Position numbers and translations under genes: made by a program
Shown: piece by piece, positions 5-62,599 of the stretch
How the letters are laid out: the number at the start of each line of letters is the position of its first letter
Numbering within the stretch: the first letter of the stretch is position 1
DNA from: an uncultured bacterium
GTDB lineage: Bacteria; UBA8481
DNA length: 64,000 nt
Direction of reading: 5' to 3'
Assembly: GCA_964499705.1 (NCBI GenBank)
Contig: CAZCME010000004.1
Span: forward strand, 62,001 to 126,000
Notes under the pieces: model-generated
The model's input: the letters and a program-made list of their open reading frames with translations, nothing else
Database searches by the model: none
Told to the model about the DNA's origin: nothing

Positions 5-931
5 TCAGTCCGCTCCGAAAACCCGCATCAGCCGTTCCCGGGTCTGCGGAAACTGAAAAAACGTCGATCGTCGGCGGGAGCCCAGAGTCCAGGTCCACAT
101 TCCTCGCGGAACCGCGGCATCATGTTCGATCGAGAAAGGAAATGCGTCTCCGGGAGAAACCGGCATGGAATCGACGGGAAAGAGCGTCCGGAACCAATGC
201 TGTCCGGACCACGCTTCATCGGGTTTCTCCTCCAGGACAACGCCGGGCGAAAGCCGGGCCGACCACCAGGCAAGAACAGCGTTGCATTCGCCGGATCGAT
301 CGGCCACCAGCGTGCAGGATCCGGAAAACCGGTCGCCCGTCGCCGTCATGAGATCGATCTCCGGCAGCGAGGACCCGGGGCCGAGCAGCATCGACGGCTT
401 GAGATAATCGGGAAACGTGTAATGCTCCATGCATTCCGCCAGCGCGGAAAAATCGAAACCGTACCGCTTCTCTCGCCAGAAAGCCGCTGCCTTGGCGACC
501 GGTACCGAATTCACGAGCGCCACGCGAAGTTGGACGGCCGACGGAATAACGATTCCTTCCTGCTTCAAGAATCGGCGCGCCGATTCCATGACGGAGATGA
601 TTTTCTCGTCCAGGAGCATATTGCCGATCATTTCACAGACGATCGTATCGACGGGTTCGATGGCGGACGGATCCAGCTTCCTGATGTCGTCGTGAATGAA
701 CCGGACATTCGATCCGTTTTTCCTCGCGACGGCGCGCGCATAATCGATCATGTCGCCCGCCTCCACGGCGACCACGTCGGCGCCAAGACGCTCCGCCGCC
801 AGGGCGAGAATGCCGGTGCCCGTACCCACGTCGAGAACGCGGCTGCCGGGCCGCACGCGTTGCTTCAGCGCGGCGAGAAAGGCGTTCGTTCGCACCTCGT
901 CGCTCAGCAGGGCGGCATGATATTCAAGCAT
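5..931 (-). CDS. Protein arginine N-methyltransferase (PRMT)-like SAM-dependent methyltransferase
   Basis: HAALLSDEVRT resembles the PRMT N-terminal helix HEEMLKDEVRT; motif I VLDVGTGTG; double-E loop CEMIGNMLLDE with 9-residue spacing; THW-like loop QHWFRTLF. Confidence 0.85.
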   Translation of the reverse strand: MLEYHAALLSDEVRTNAFLAALKQRVRPGSRVLDVGTGTGILALAAERLGADVVAVEAGDMIDYARAVARKNGSNVRFIHDDIRKLDPSAIEPVDTIVCEMIGNMLLDEKIISVMESARRFLKQEGIVIPSAVQLRVALVNSVPVAKAAAFWREKRYGFDFSALAECMEHYTFPDYLKPSMLLGPGSSLPEIDLMTATGDRFSGSCTLVADRSGECNAVLAWWSARLSPGVVLEEKPDEAWSGQHWFRTLFPVDSMPVSPGDAFPFSIEHDAAVPRGMWTWTLGSRRRSTFFQFPQTRERLMRVFGAD

Positions 932-949
932 GAGGATGAAGAAAGATGA

Positions 950-1147
950 TCAGGGCATAAGCCAGGGAGGGATGTCCATCGGCGCCGAAGCGCCTCCGCA
1001 TCGCCCACTCTGGCAATTGATCGAGCTCCGCGTTCCGCTCGGCTGCTGATACGTCTCGATCCCCGTGTAGGGAAGCTTGTACCGGGTCAAATGCGGCTTG
1101 AGATAGGCCTTGCCCTTGTTCTCGTGGCAGCTCTCCGTCTTTTTCAT
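950..1147 (-). CDS. Putative RiPP precursor peptide (65 aa)
   Basis: ATG at 1147 overlaps the rSAM stop (ATGA) and has a GAGGT Shine-Dalgarno upstream; leader carries YLKPHL (YxxPxL RRE-binding motif); C-terminal part rich in S/G/C/R/P; lies between rSAM and methyltransferase. Confidence 0.8.
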   Translation of the reverse strand: MKKTESCHENKGKAYLKPHLTRYKLPYTGIETYQQPSGTRSSINCQSGRCGGASAPMDIPPWLMP

Positions 1148-2205
1148 GCGGCACCTCGGATGAAGACTCCGTTTATGATGTCGTCGCGACCGAGCCAAGC
1201 GGCGGTCACTTCGCAATGATGCGGAGCGGGGCGGTCATAATGCCCCGTCTCCTGAACAAACTGACCCATGCAACGGTAGCGGCACGAGGAAAGCATCGAG
1301 CACGATTTGCACGTGGAGATCTCCGTGCCTTTCTGCATCCGGATTTCATTCAACCTCCGCGAATTTCTCCAGACGTGCCGGAACGGAGTGTGCCGGATAT
1401 TGCCGACCGATTCGGGAACCTGCGAGCAGGGATACAAGTCCCCCAGCGGACCCACCGCGAACCTGCTCCACCCCATGTTGCACATCTCCGGATGATCCTC
1501 GTCGATGCAGGATGAAAATTCCGGGCGGCCCGTCCATTCCGTATAGCGACTCTCGCACTCCCGGATCTCGGCGGGCGTCAGGCGGTCCGCGAGAAACCCG
1601 TCGTTGCCGGAAACGAAACGGGGCGTGATGTGATACGATGGTGCGAAGATGGCGCCGGCTTCTTCGCAGAGCCTTCCCAGCTCCGTGATCGAATCGAAGT
1701 TCGTCCTCATAACCGACATCTTGACGATCGTCTTGATGCCGGCATCGACCGAAAGTTTCACCTTGGGAAACGCCCGCGCGAATGCTCCGGGCATCTTCAC
1801 GAACCGGTCATGCGATGCTCCCACTCCATGAATCGAAAAATGCAGCTCCTGGATTTCCTGCGACACGAGATATTCGATGTCCTCCTCGGAGAGGACCGTC
1901 CCGTTCTGAAATATCTCATACCGGAATCTCAAGCGGCAGGCTTCGCGGACAATCTCCCGCCAGCCGCGGTGAACAAGCGGTTCCCCGCCGCTGAACGTGA
2001 GCTGAAACGTGCCTTCATTCCGGATTTCATTCAGGATGCGGATCCACTCATCCGTCGACATCTCCCCACCCACGGGCAGACCGATGCGATAGCAGTGAAC
2101 GCATTCCAGGTTGCACTTTTCCGTGAGATGGAGATGGGCCATATGGGGAACGGCTTTCCGTTCGAGCTTGCTGAACAATTCCTCGCGCGACATTTCGACG
2201 ATCAT
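1144..2205 (-). CDS. Radical SAM/SPASM domain protein (peptide maturase-like)
   Basis: CNLECVHC (CxxxCxxC); FSGGEP; SPASM cysteines CNMG...GDLYPC...CKSC-x5-C-x3-C...HHC. Confidence 0.92.
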   Translation of the reverse strand: MIVEMSREELFSKLERKAVPHMAHLHLTEKCNLECVHCYRIGLPVGGEMSTDEWIRILNEIRNEGTFQLTFSGGEPLVHRGWREIVREACRLRFRYEIFQNGTVLSEEDIEYLVSQEIQELHFSIHGVGASHDRFVKMPGAFARAFPKVKLSVDAGIKTIVKMSVMRTNFDSITELGRLCEEAGAIFAPSYHITPRFVSGNDGFLADRLTPAEIRECESRYTEWTGRPEFSSCIDEDHPEMCNMGWSRFAVGPLGDLYPCSQVPESVGNIRHTPFRHVWRNSRRLNEIRMQKGTEISTCKSCSMLSSCRYRCMGQFVQETGHYDRPAPHHCEVTAAWLGRDDIINGVFIRGAA

Positions 2206-2498
2206 GCGGCTTCCGACCGATCGGATGGAGGAGAGGCCAGCAGGAGCTCTTCCCGCACGAGGTCGGCGAAGAGTTCATCCAGATCGGCCGCCGCCGTTTC
2301 GCGCGAAACATCGTATTCCGCCACGATCAGGTCGATCAGCTCCGATCTCGGGAGAGGTTTCTGTTCCATGGAGCGCCAGATGAAGGATCCGACCGGATCA
2401 AGCGAATAGTAAGTGGTGGTCTTGATCCGCAGAATCACGACCTCCCCGTCGATCACTCTCCAGGCGAGTTCCGGATTCAGGCTGAACAGGGGATCCAT
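2202..2498 (-). CDS. PqqD family RiPP recognition element (RRE)
   Basis: 98 aa; WRVIDGEVVIL, YYSLDPVGSFIW, EYDVSRETAAADLDELFADL; ATGA-coupled to the rSAM gene. Confidence 0.92.
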   Translation of the reverse strand: MDPLFSLNPELAWRVIDGEVVILRIKTTTYYSLDPVGSFIWRSMEQKPLPRSELIDLIVAEYDVSRETAAADLDELFADLVREELLLASPPSDRSEAA

Positions 2499-2619: not shown

Positions 2620-2705
2620 GCCGGAGTGGCGGAATGGCAGACGCGGCGGACTCAAAATCCGTTAGGAGCAATCCTGTGTGGGTTCAACTCCCACCTCCGG
2701 CACCA
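2620..2705 (+). tRNA. tRNA-Leu (CAA)
   Basis: Acceptor stem GCCGGAG/CTCCGGC, anticodon arm GCGGA-CT-CAA-AA-TCCGT, long variable arm, GGTTCAACTCC T-loop, encoded CCA. Confidence 0.95.
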
Positions 2706-4383
2706 TCCCCATGATCGCCCGCCGAAAACTCGCATGCCCGTTCATTCCCAGCACGCTCTCGCGCTCCGACGGTCCCGACTTCGTCAGAATGATCCGGAGC
2801 ATCTCGCTCATTTCGACGGCGGGCCAGGCCGCCAAATCCGGAATACAGGCGAGGAGCAGACACAGCTCATCCGCAAGTTCGTTTCGCGGTATCCTTCCTC
2901 CCAGAGCTCCCGCGACATGCTCGCGCGCCGACAGGATCGCATCGGTCCGATCTCCCTGGTGAGCGGCGATCGACGATGTGACGATCATTCCCGCTTTGGC
3001 ATAACGGAAATTTCCGAGGACGGCCCGATTTTCCTCTCCGAGATGGAAATAAAGATTCTCCGTCGCGAACAGTTTAAGAGTGCGGGCATCCGAGCGCGAA
3101 CCGGGTCGGGATTTCAAGCGCTTCGCTTCGGCTTCGACCTTCGCCCGCATTTTCGCGCCGAACGGGCGGAAGCCGAGCTTGTGGTAGAACCAGAACGCGC
3201 CGGACTTGATCGCCTCGTCGTTTTCATGGCCGAACTGGTATTTCATGACGGAAAAGGAAAGGGCTCCGGTGTGATGGTGGATGACCCGCAGAAGCGCGGC
3301 ATAGGTCAGCGCCGCTTCGCCGTGCCGAAAGGAGTCGAAGATGTTGAACGCGATCTCGGAGGACTCGAAGAGGCAGCTGAAACAGCCGTAACCGACGGGA
3401 ATTCCATTCTTCAGCAGGAGATATCCCCACAATCCCTCAAGGATCATCCGCCGTTCAGGAAGAACTCCATACGTCACGATCTCCAGGCCGCGATCGAGCG
3501 CATAGACCATCACATCCGAGGGATTCGCATGCGAGATCGGATAGATCTCCCTTTCGCGCGCGGCGAGCGACGCGCGGGCCACGCGGATGAGAAAGAGAGC
3601 TTCCTCCCTGGTCTCCGCGGAGGGCCTGTCCAGCGGTCTCCCGATTTCCATGCGCAGATCGGCGACACCCCGCTGCAACGGCGCCTCATGATGGAATACA
3701 TGCGCCCTCTCCGCATACGCACTCGTCTTCGAAAGTCCGGGCTGGTCCAATCGAAGGACCAGAGGTAGCTCCATCGAATCAAAAAGATGATCCCGGAGGC
3801 GTGGAGACAGATTCAATTCCCTGATCCTGTCGATGAGCCAGACCAGCGTGTTCCTATTCCCCGCCGCCAGCCGCATCCAGTCCTCGGTCGAGATCTCCTC
3901 GTCCTCGAGGCCGGGTTCCTCGGCCAGACCCGAAAGCAGCGGGAGCAGCTTCTGAAGCGCTTCTGTCTCACATTCTTTCCAGTCGATTTCGACCTGCCCG
4001 GGGCAGGCGGAACGCAACCAGGCCGCCATGGGAAATTCAAAGGCATACTCGATGACCGTGCCGGCAATGCCGGAGCTCTTCATCGCGCGGGCAAGTCGCT
4101 CGTCGATCCGGTGAGGAAACGATTTCAGTTGCTGAAGGGCAAGACGGTGAATGTCCCCGTTGTCGGGAAAGGCGGCCATGTAAAGAAGCAGATCGTGATA
4201 GCGTATGAAAAGGCGCGCGCGCGACGATTGCCTGCCTGCAAACGAAGCGGCGGACAGGGCTGCCAGAAGTTCCAGCTTGAGCGCCGCGGATTCCGAGGTG
4301 CGTTCTCTCCGCAAATCCTCCAGCTTCCGGAGATGTCTTGCCGCGAGCCTGCCGATGCGCGCGACGGAGAGAGGGGGGGGCAC
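2662..4383 (-). CDS. Uncharacterised protein with a probable C-terminal GNAT-like domain
   Basis: 573-aa ORF downstream of nadA; KNGIPVGYG and AFWFYHKLGF resemble GNAT motifs; 3' end overlaps tRNA-Leu antisense. Confidence 0.65.
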   Translation of the reverse strand: MPPPLSVARIGRLAARHLRKLEDLRRERTSESAALKLELLAALSAASFAGRQSSRARLFIRYHDLLLYMAAFPDNGDIHRLALQQLKSFPHRIDERLARAMKSSGIAGTVIEYAFEFPMAAWLRSACPGQVEIDWKECETEALQKLLPLLSGLAEEPGLEDEEISTEDWMRLAAGNRNTLVWLIDRIRELNLSPRLRDHLFDSMELPLVLRLDQPGLSKTSAYAERAHVFHHEAPLQRGVADLRMEIGRPLDRPSAETREEALFLIRVARASLAAREREIYPISHANPSDVMVYALDRGLEIVTYGVLPERRMILEGLWGYLLLKNGIPVGYGCFSCLFESSEIAFNIFDSFRHGEAALTYAALLRVIHHHTGALSFSVMKYQFGHENDEAIKSGAFWFYHKLGFRPFGAKMRAKVEAEAKRLKSRPGSRSDARTLKLFATENLYFHLGEENRAVLGNFRYAKAGMIVTSSIAAHQGDRTDAILSAREHVAGALGGRIPRNELADELCLLLACIPDLAAWPAVEMSEMLRIILTKSGPSERESVLGMNGHASFRRAIMGMVPEVGVEPTQDCS

Positions 4384-60854: not shown

Positions 60855-62599
60855 CTGTGATCCTGGCTGACGCGCAGCACTTCCTCGATCGTCGTCTCCC
60901 CCGCGAGAATCTTCTCGATGCCGGTCTGCCGGAGGCTGCGCATTCCCGCGGCGCATCCGGCTCGACGCAGGTCATGCGCCGACGCGCCCGCGATGATGAG
61001 TTCCTGGAGCTTCTCGTCGACGGTCATGACCTCGAAGAGCCCGATGCGGCCCTCATAGCCCGTTTCGCCGCATTGCTTGCATCCGCGGCCGCGTGAAACT
61101 TTCGAATCGATCGGAATTTCCAGGCGATCCGCCAGCACGCGCGTCACGGTCTCTGACTGTCTGCAGTTTTCGCAGATCTTCCGGATAAGCCGTTGCGCGA
61201 CGATGCCCGTCAGGGACGAGGCCACGAGAAAAGGCTCTACGCCCATCTGCACGAGCCTTGTAACGGTGAGGGGCGCATCGTTCGTGTGAAGCGTCGAGAG
61301 GACGAAGTGACCCGTCAGAGCCGCCTGGATCGCGATCTCGGCGGTCTCCTTGTCGCGGATCTCGCCGACCATCACGATGTCGGGGTCCTGGCGGAGAATC
61401 GATTTCAAGATGCTGGCGAACGTCAGGCCCGCTTTCGAGAGCACCTGGACCTGGTTGACGCGCTCGATGTGATACTCGACCGGATCCTCCACCGTGACGA
61501 TATTCACTTCCTCGCTGTTGAGATGCTGAAGGCATGAATAGAGCGTCGTCGTCTTGCCCGACCCCGTGGGGCCGGTCACGAGAAGAATACCGTTCGGCGC
61601 GGCGAGGATCGACTTGAGCCTCTCCACATCGCGGCTTTCGAGCCCGAGGTCGTCGAGCCCCAGGCGCGTCGCGCGAAGGTCGAGCACGCGGATCACGGCC
61701 TTCTCGCCGAAAACCGTCGGCAGCACCGAAACGCGGAGATCGACGTTGTGTCCCTGGACCTTGATGCGCACGCGGCCATCCTGAGGAATTCTCCGCTCCG
61801 CGATGTCCAGTCCCGCGATCAGCTTGATCCGCGAAACAAGGGGCGCGTGGAAACTGATCGGAGGCCCCTTGATGACGCGCAGAATCCCGTCCACGCGAAA
61901 GCGGATATGCAGGACGCGCTCGTCGGGCTCGACGTGAATGTCGGACGCTCGATCGCGGATCGCCTGGCTGAAGATGGAATTGAGGAGCCGGATGATCGGC
62001 GCCTCCTCGGCGGCCGACTCCATCTGAGTGACATCCACGATGCCGGAGTCTTTCGTATCCTCCGCCACCTCGACGTCCTCCTCCATCTCCTCCACGACGC
62101 TGTTCATCGAGGCGCCGTAGTGACGCCGCAGGGCATTTTCCAGCTCGGTCGCGGTCGTGACCACGAGGTCCAGTTTCAACCCCGTCAGTTCGCGGATCGC
62201 ATCCATCGCGAAAACATCGAGCGGATCGGACATGGCGACGACGAGGCGTTCCTTGACGCGAAAGAGCGGTATGACGCGATGGCGGAGCGCGAGGTCGACG
62301 GGGATCATCCGCAGCGTTTCCGGATCCATGATGTACTGGTCCATGTTTTCGTAAGGAAGATTGAGATGATTCGCGAGCGCTTCGGCAATCGCATTTTCCG
62401 TGGTGAAGCCCTTCTCGATCATGATCCGGCCGACGCGAACGCCCGGAGTATCGAGCTGAGATTCGAGCGCGGCGATGAGCTGTTCCTCCGTGATGACTTC
62501 CTGCGCGATGAGAATTTCACCGATGCGCTTTCGCGTGCGGCGTTCCATCGCGGCTCTGGCCACGGGAGCCGCGGGAGCCGCGGTAATCATCGCGGTCAC
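60851..62599 (-). CDS. pilB: Extension ATPase PilB/GspE with MshEN domain
   Basis: RIGEIL..QL..AL..Q; ASDIH; GPTGSGKTT; RQDPD; CxxC...CxxC. Confidence 0.93.
   Translation of the reverse strand: MTAMITAAPAAPVARAAMERRTRKRIGEILIAQEVITEEQLIAALESQLDTPGVRVGRIMIEKGFTTENAIAEALANHLNLPYENMDQYIMDPETLRMIPVDLALRHRVIPLFRVKERLVVAMSDPLDVFAMDAIRELTGLKLDLVVTTATELENALRRHYGASMNSVVEEMEEDVEVAEDTKDSGIVDVTQMESAAEEAPIIRLLNSIFSQAIRDRASDIHVEPDERVLHIRFRVDGILRVIKGPPISFHAPLVSRIKLIAGLDIAERRIPQDGRVRIKVQGHNVDLRVSVLPTVFGEKAVIRVLDLRATRLGLDDLGLESRDVERLKSILAAPNGILLVTGPTGSGKTTTLYSCLQHLNSEEVNIVTVEDPVEYHIERVNQVQVLSKAGLTFASILKSILRQDPDIVMVGEIRDKETAEIAIQAALTGHFVLSTLHTNDAPLTVTRLVQMGVEPFLVASSLTGIVAQRLIRKICENCRQSETVTRVLADRLEIPIDSKVSRGRGCKQCGETGYEGRIGLFEVMTVDEKLQELIIAGASAHDLRRAGCAAGMRSLRQTGIEKILAGETTIEEVLRVSQDHR

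Follow-up and report, generated by a model that had tools for sequence, protein, structure and literature searches.

Directly behind a radical-SAM gene, close to the start of the window (the whole stretch of 64,000 nucleotides that was analysed, which begins at base 62001 of its contig), lies a short open reading frame on the minus strand. The locus raises the question whether this frame is a gene and, if so, what becomes of the peptide that it encodes. A preliminary description of the DNA had proposed a precursor peptide with a lasso-like leader and a core containing Cys and Arg. The frame at positions 950–1147 is a real, conserved small-peptide gene. Its product is most likely modified by the neighbouring enzymes, a set which would combine lasso-type leader-handling parts with a radical-SAM enzyme and a PRMT-like enzyme, and which comes without a lasso cyclase.

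A conserved peptide gene behind a radical-SAM gene

The gene (950–1147, minus strand, stop codon at 950–952) encodes a predicted precursor or substrate peptide of 65 amino acids, referred to as type 1, and is conserved beside orthologous radical-SAM genes. In the list of open reading frames, the frame begins at a TTG at position 1216 (88 aa), as the preliminary description had stated, and the 65-residue translation is identical to the one given there. The start at 1147 which it had preferred is well founded. A Shine-Dalgarno-like GAGGT was read from the sequence at 1153–1157 of the minus strand, five bases ahead of the ATG, and sequence inspection revealed that this ATG (1147–1145) overlaps the TGA stop codon of the radical-SAM gene (1146–1144) as ATGA on the same strand. 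P0012, an ortholog of 64 aa with 69% identity to the window peptide, also opens with MKKTE. In four related genomes an ATG is located shortly 3' of the radical-SAM gene, with a purine-rich stretch upstream in most of them. The peptide had been called hidden, but its 65-aa product is already present in a public protein collection (P0008), and the ortholog P0005 is annotated as 'hypothetical protein'.

Searches of Pfam and NCBIfam with the peptide gave no match at E ≤ 0.1. A family profile built from 25 members was run against the whole 4.67-Mb genome, where 114 candidates were scored and the matches at E ≤ 0.01 were this frame and one paralog. Four near-identical metagenome copies of the gene display 0–3 synonymous and 0–3 non-synonymous differences, numbers too small to be interpreted.

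Among 41 genomes searched, close orthologs of the radical-SAM enzyme (48–66% identity) were found in the genome of the window and in four relatives only, the next best sequence being 33% identical. The peptide used as query gave E ≤ 3e-6 in these five genomes only, and no match in the remaining 36 fell below E = 0.002. Locus scans, queried with the radical-SAM alignment, covered 185,579 species genomes as well as JGI metagenomes. The species genomes returned the four known relatives and five distant loci, and the metagenomes four further loci. In the eight loci from both scans with a radical-SAM enzyme of at least 48% identity, four of which are the same related genomes as in the 41-genome search, a peptide frame was detected directly downstream of the enzyme gene (8/8, E 4e-20 to 8e-28). 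In the five loci with distant relatives of the enzyme, no peptide match was obtained (0/5). Loss of the frame at homologous loci had been named as a result that would speak against the peptide. A homologous peptide gene follows every close ortholog of the enzyme, which supports both the conservation of the frame and the proposed coupling of a precursor-type peptide to the radical-SAM enzyme.

The peptide family is rare: a library of 5.77 billion proteins contains 12 members at E ≤ 0.01. A search of 1.84 billion cluster representatives gave 20 matches at E ≤ 0.001, sixteen of which are peptides of 56–75 aa. The other four are P0021 (293 aa) and three long proteins, P0023, P0027 and P0028 (722–1384 aa, with 7–9 matched stretches each), which were assumed to be matches to repetitive sequence. 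P0021 matches in its last ~55 residues only, is probably an over-long gene call, and was omitted from the alignment (A2). P0001–P0005, P0007, P0008 and P0013 were also omitted, being identical or near-identical to included rows. One record is labelled Candidatus Hydrogenedentota.

The cassette and its predicted enzymes

Four genes follow each other on the minus strand in the order PqqD-type protein, radical-SAM/SPASM enzyme, peptide and PRMT-fold methyltransferase, with 4-base overlaps between the first two and between the radical-SAM and peptide genes, and an 18-base gap from the peptide to the methyltransferase gene. The 12 kb of contig that precede the window carry the genes of a B2-type peptidase and of an HprK-like protein, converging on the methyltransferase gene. 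With these two genes from outside the window, the conserved cassette comprises six: PqqD-type RRE, radical-SAM/SPASM enzyme, peptide, PRMT-fold methyltransferase, B2 peptidase and HprK-like kinase. The order of the first four is kept in all four related genomes (4/4), and the two convergent genes are present in the same arrangement in all three relatives whose contigs extend far enough. The flanks consist of housekeeping genes: TrmB and sugar-metabolism genes lie beyond the B2 and kinase genes, and a tRNA-Leu(CAA) gene on the other side. Neither a transporter nor an immunity gene was found within the cassette. The tRNA-Leu(CAA) gene (2620–2705, plus strand) is located directly upstream of the operon. 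On the strand opposite to it, a 573-aa frame (2662–4383, minus strand) runs with its last 44 bases antisense into the tRNA gene. This frame was considered as a member of the cassette and rejected, as it is not syntenic in the relatives and has no Pfam or NCBIfam match.

The first gene (2202–2498, minus strand) encodes a discrete RRE protein of 98 aa from the PqqD family (Pfam PqqD, 1.5e-17), similar to the lasso B1 protein, and overlaps the start of the radical-SAM gene by 4 bases. Its top NCBIfam match is lasso_PqqD_Bac with 47 bits, below the cut-off of 80. The radical-SAM/SPASM enzyme (1144–2205, minus strand, 353 aa) was recognized by Pfam Radical_SAM (2.3e-17) and SPASM (4.4e-11). It displays a CX3CX2C motif (C31, C35, C38) and eight conserved C-terminal cysteines, and no N-terminal RRE domain was found in it. 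Among solved structures, it is closest to SkfB (5e-24) and to the radical-SAM chain of structure 5wgg (9e-13), known as CteB. No NCBIfam equivalog reaches its cut-off with this enzyme, the best being AhbD, NirJ2 and ScmE, which all score far below it, and GeoRSP. This holds for the curated maturase families of the sacti- and ranthi-type (StsB 93 bits against a cut-off of 625, SkfB 91 against 300, AlbA 75 against 850, PapB 57 against 340) as well as for PqqE (92 against 381) and MftC (94 against 265). A peptide of the PqqA or MftA type was not recognised either, the peptide itself having no NCBIfam or Pfam match. The SynChlorMet equivalogs were also missed (ScmE 111 against 400, ScmD 20 against 100, ScmC 25 against 125 bits).

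The methyltransferase (5–931, minus strand, 308 aa) matches PRMT1 structures over residues 5–266 (E 4e-26) and Pfam PRMT_C (3.5e-10). Its alignment with PRMT1 includes the SAM motif and the double-E loop, the His-Trp pair from the THW loop, and also the barrel at the C-terminus. Both glutamates of the double-E loop are invariant in the six sequences compared (window and five orthologs), while the His of HW is replaced by Ser in one ortholog.

The two remaining proteins are both encoded in the 12 kb before the window. The lasso-type B2 peptidase (142 aa, convergent to the methyltransferase) scores 52.7 bits with NF033537 lasso_biosyn_B2, above the cut-off of 33, and matches Pfam Transglut_core3 (1.9e-13). 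Its residues Cys71, His105 and Asp117 are invariant, and a whole-genome search identified it as the sole B2 protein of the genome. Its gene is overlapped by 4 bases by that of the HprK-like P-loop protein (308 aa), which carries the Walker A motif GRSGAGKST and gives weak matches to HprK_rel_A (1e-6) and ScmC (1e-5). In look-alike clusters of the protein atlas, which serve as leads only, HprK_C or ScmC Pfam domains occur in only 10–43% of members. The assignment of the P-loop protein as a kinase is weak.

Elsewhere in the same genome, a second discrete PqqD gene (G000:C8:12021-12212), an open frame of 883 aa that matches radical-SAM as well as PqqD models (G000:C11:44148-44933) and two adjacent radical-SAM/SPASM paralogs with 27–28% identity (G000:C10:63574-65600) were observed. 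These may represent further loci of peptide modification.

Predicted leader and core, and a second peptide type

The predicted leader comprises residues 1–31 (1055–1147, minus strand), with the motif Y15-x-x-P18-x-L20 at bases 1088–1105, followed by R22-Y23 and by I30 at the predicted position −2. The proposal of a lasso-like YxxPxL leader is supported by the family. The motif [YW]xxPx[LIV] is kept in all 25 tabulated members, one of which has Gln in place of Pro, and both B1 and B2 proteins are encoded in the cassette. Disappearance of the motif from homologous loci had also been named as an objection to the peptide, which its retention answers. For the numbering, the motif was set as Y(−17)/P(−14)/L(−12), the spacing of lasso leaders (PMC10368454). 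With this canonical spacing, position −2 is I30, two residues before T32. This position is occupied by Ile in 14 and by Val in 3 of the 17 type-1 peptides, a variant that has been reported for kinase-associated lasso precursors (PMC10368454). T32 had been suggested as the lasso-type Thr(−2), with a core from Q34. Its column is Thr in 2 of 17 type-1 peptides and F, E, S, M, A or Q in the rest, and I30 at −2 places the predicted start of the core at T32, so that neither suggestion is supported. In the N-terminal part of the leader, the peptides of L002/L036, L043 and L044 contain a five-residue KDWSR/KDRSR repeat, whose copy number differs among near-identical strains.

The predicted core, residues 32–65 (TYQQPSG...PPWLMP; 953–1054, minus strand), has an inferred boundary and holds Y33, C45, C50, P60 and W62. 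The initiator Met aside, these five residues are the invariant ones (25/25) in the alignment of 25 sequences, in which P18, Y23, G38 and G52 reach a conservation of 90% or more. C45, C50 and W62 had already been singled out by the preliminary description, which is in agreement with their invariance. The predicted type-1 cores share a layout in which a variable first residue (T, F, E, S, M, A or Q, as counted from the inferred cleavage site) is followed by Y-Q and an [ST]-G pair. A loop of the form CX4-7C and a stretch rich in Gly come next, and P-x-W is close to the C-terminal end.

Binding of the leader by the PqqD protein was evaluated with a complex prediction. A low score, somewhat below the middle of the scale, was obtained for PqqD and the peptide while the best of three controls scored nil; the runs agreed in at least 88% of contacts, with a partner pLDDT of at least 49. 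Of 80 solved complexes, 58 reach the mark applied, as do 2 of 110 mismatched pairs. In the lower score range, to which this result belongs, the mark was passed by 7 of the 80 solved complexes and by both of the mismatched pairs that passed. Because RRE–leader complexes have already been solved and the alignments used were built by the authors, the pass may reflect likeness to known complexes. The prediction thus lends weak support to the binding.

Several features recall a true lasso precursor, for which the cyclase would be encoded elsewhere in the genome. The B1 and B2 proteins, the kinase-like protein and the YxxPxL leader with I/V(−2) resemble kinase-type lasso clusters (PMC10368454), and six homologs of asparagine synthase are present in the genome, one of them, on contig C30, lacking the first ~100 residues of the glutaminase domain. 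No macrolactam cyclase of the Asn-synthase-like type was found within the cassette. All six homologs miss the lasso-cyclase cut-offs (the best reaching 265 bits where NF033535 requires 525, and 95 where NF033561 requires 300), five of the six pass the ordinary asparagine-synthase equivalog, and none lies on the contig of the cassette; a lasso cyclase acting in trans was rejected on these scores. The peptide argues in the same direction. The classical Thr at leader position −2 was found in none of the type-1 members (I/V in 17/17). Counted from the inferred cleavage site, the predicted cores show neither a consistently small first residue, which is variable and often bulky, nor Asp or Glu at positions 7–9, absent from every type-1 sequence. 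With no cyclase and no acidic ring acceptor, the product is not expected to be a lasso peptide, and we regard this explanation as extremely improbable. The homolog on C30 (G000:C30:20156-21280; L030:1483-3225) is a protein of 580 aa that lies below every curated cut-off, and a second Asn-synthase homolog is located 4 kb from it.

The single paralog found by the profile search defines a second peptide type. Leader and invariant residues (Y, C, C, P and W) are shared with type 1, but this paralog ends with C-x6-C-RGRGRG...APPPWG and is unlinked to the cassette. Type-2 genes were identified at G000:C32:4581-4784 (L017:4581-4784), L018:5761-5955, L019:4210-4401, L020:5920-6147 and L058:1498-1701, one per genome in five genomes. 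This small candidate phylum of GTDB is represented by five species genomes in the collection searched, and each of them contains exactly one type-1 and one type-2 peptide gene (5/5). The type-2 gene is located between ksgA and an M23 peptidase gene in four genomes, the fifth sharing the downstream genes only, and pdxA and FapA also belong to the neighbourhood. Directly upstream of the type-2 gene and downstream of ksgA, a mini radical-SAM-like protein of 177–187 aa is encoded (L017:4005-4568; orthologs in L018, L019 and L058:958-1491), with a CX3CX2C motif and a weak Radical_SAM match. A frame of ~190–260 aa with no family assignment follows the peptide gene. Most type-2 leaders are shorter by one residue, and I/V is absent from the counted −2 position, which makes common processing by one B1/B2 pair uncertain.

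The second type bears on the target of the methyltransferase. R40 and R49 of the window peptide had been pointed out, R49 for a Gly-rich context (SGRCGG) resembling PRMT substrate sites, but Arg occupies these columns in only 4 and 2 of 25 sequences, respectively, so that neither is a conserved site. Nine of the 17 predicted type-1 cores contain no Arg at all, including several encoded right beside the methyltransferase gene, and an arginine methyltransferase would find no core target there. All type-2 peptides (8/8) carry 2–5 Arg in RG repeats. Therefore, the idea of arginine methylation, in agreement with the PRMT-fold enzyme, suits the paralog better than the window peptide, whose Arg residues are not conserved. 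The main target of the methyltransferase is probably the type-2 peptide, which is encoded apart from the cassette, shares the leader and contains the RGRGRG sequence.

Proposed maturation, possible roles and related systems

It is considered likely that the peptide is the substrate of a conserved six-gene cassette of the RiPP type and is matured along the following path. The discrete PqqD protein (a B1-type RRE) would bind the leader via the [YW]xxPxL motif (Y15, P18, L20) and hand the peptide over to the radical-SAM/SPASM enzyme, in whose sequence no RRE was seen. This enzyme would then modify the core at invariant residues, where thioethers from C45 and C50 are the first outcome to expect, with a probability slightly under one half. 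Some other kind of modification is possible though less probable, and an aromatic cross-link, a carbon–carbon or carbon–oxygen bond at Y33 or W62, appears rather more doubtful. Further groups would be added by the HprK-like kinase and the PRMT-fold methyltransferase. Finally, the B2 cysteine peptidase, aided by B1, would cut off the leader after I30-E31, leaving a linear or cross-linked product of 34 residues without a lasso ring.

Two other views of the peptide were weighed against this pathway. An unmodified conserved small protein, either a metal- or redox-active peptide with two cysteines or one that serves the radical-SAM enzyme as accessory subunit or regulator, could explain the two invariant cysteines in the CX4-7C loop. 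This is very unlikely, since the leader motif fits the consensus of RRE ligands and the cassette contains a dedicated RRE and a leader peptidase; the PqqD–peptide complex prediction also speaks weakly against it. The other view concerns the role of the peptide and is compatible with the same enzymology. According to it, the peptide would act as a substrate within the cell, in a function common to the whole lineage (e.g., as source of a cofactor similar to PQQ or mycofactocin, or as a modified small protein), instead of giving rise to an exported product, and the cassette would be of housekeeping nature. Each of the five genomes, from two families, has one gene of each type, the divergence resembles that of housekeeping proteins (radical-SAM enzyme 48–66%, TrmB 50–61%, KsgA 52–63% identity), the cassette has no transporter, and the type-2 gene lies among pdxA, ksgA, the M23 peptidase gene and FapA. 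The arrangement of a discrete PqqD protein with an RRE-less SPASM enzyme in PqqD/PqqE and MftB/MftC was also counted in its favour. However, the PqqE and MftC scores are far below their cut-offs, peptides that are released typically have a dedicated leader peptidase of the lasso type, and the core is of considerable length, with a variable sequence between its invariant residues. An intracellular role of this kind is rather unlikely on balance.

An even more tentative proposal concerns both peptides at once. They would form a phylum-wide system, with the RGRGRG peptide, reminiscent of an RGG box, as the substrate that a genuine bacterial PRMT methylates. This type-2 peptide would have its own mini radical-SAM protein of ~180 residues beside ksgA, and both peptides would be matured by the lasso-type leader machinery and radical-SAM enzymes for a core cellular role (e.g., associated with RNA, the ribosome or the envelope) and not for antibiosis.

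Returning to the six-gene pathway favoured here, its parts recall several known systems. The kinase-type lasso clusters with split B1/B2, such as Bradymonas bsf (PMC10368454), share with it the discrete PqqD RRE, the transglutaminase-like B2 protein and the HprK-like kinase, and their leader motif Y(−17)xxP(−14)xL(−12) with Ile/Val(−2), as given in that publication, is also present in the window peptide. In contrast, the cassette contains no macrolactam cyclase, acidic ring acceptor, nucleotidyltransferase or transporter, and a radical-SAM/SPASM enzyme and a PRMT-fold enzyme are found instead. The paeninodin type is named both in PMC10368454 and in PMC13381572. [quoted passage not shown] The main text of that paper mentions neither radical SAM nor a methyltransferase. 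None of the SipW-like peptidase, NTP transferase and MsbA-like transporter was found among the six cassette genes, which all belong to other families; the peptidase of the cassette is of the B2 type and the leader consensus differs from that of LPP.

The maturases of sactipeptides and ranthipeptides (SkfB, 5wgg), the best solved relatives of the radical-SAM enzyme, are likewise RRE-guided radical-SAM/SPASM enzymes which act on a core bearing cysteines. Here, however, the RRE is a separate protein, the core has only two cysteines, no NCBIfam family is reached at cut-off, and the thioethers are predicted only. SynChlorMet ScmC/D/E correspond to the same protein types (PqqD, radical-SAM/SPASM and HprK-like), but the Scm models score far below their cut-offs here. 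The methyltransferase resembles eukaryote-type PRMTs (PRMT1 and relatives) over its whole length (E 4e-26), yet it is a bacterial enzyme encoded in a peptide-modification operon, and the adjoining peptide often has no Arg in its core.

Three MAGs, labelled Latescibacterota, Chromatiaceae and Deltaproteobacteria, encode distant relatives of the radical-SAM enzyme (25–29% identity) next to genes for PqqD, for P-loop kinase-like proteins or for both, with a PRMT-like gene at the deltaproteobacterial locus only. This analogous cluster (L037:2009-6351) consists of a 61-aa frame with two cysteines and a YQAPVI motif, a P-loop kinase-like protein, an S24-like peptidase, a radical-SAM/SPASM enzyme with 29% identity and a PRMT-like methyltransferase with 27% identity. 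In the MAG labelled Latescibacterota (L038:7615-10998), PqqD, radical-SAM/SPASM and P-loop kinase-like proteins and a 350-aa frame are encoded in a row, and neither a methyltransferase nor a match to the peptide family was found at this locus. The peptide family and the PRMT-fold enzyme are what sets the window cassette apart from other PqqD/radical-SAM/HprK-like cassettes.

The peptide thus appears, from its gene context, to be the substrate in a new variant of RiPP-type cassette, in which the lasso leader machinery would be combined with a radical-SAM and a PRMT-fold enzyme. In the open-access literature, to which the survey was confined, no description of the cassette or of a PRMT-fold enzyme in a RiPP pathway was found; within that literature, this would be the first PRMT-fold enzyme tied to a ribosomal peptide pathway. 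With RRE-Finder, ~300 discrete lasso-type RREs were located beside radical-SAM enzymes, where they were counted as 'false positives' of the lasso model and left uncharacterised (PMC7470986). Cyclase-less reuse of the lasso leader parts has so far been noted only in passing, and the LPPs, the first characterised relatives, use quite different enzymes. The cassette is a defined and testable addition to the poorly charted pathways which reuse the lasso leader, RRE and B2 protein without a cyclase.

The presence of both peptide types in every genome available for the lineage suggests a physiological role. As a natural pair, one with RG repeats and one mostly free of Arg, the two peptides offer a way to ask what a bacterial PRMT methylates. 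Should the tentative two-peptide reading be true, it would mean arginine methylation of a Gly-Arg-rich ribosomal peptide in bacteria, together with a new class of RiPPs.
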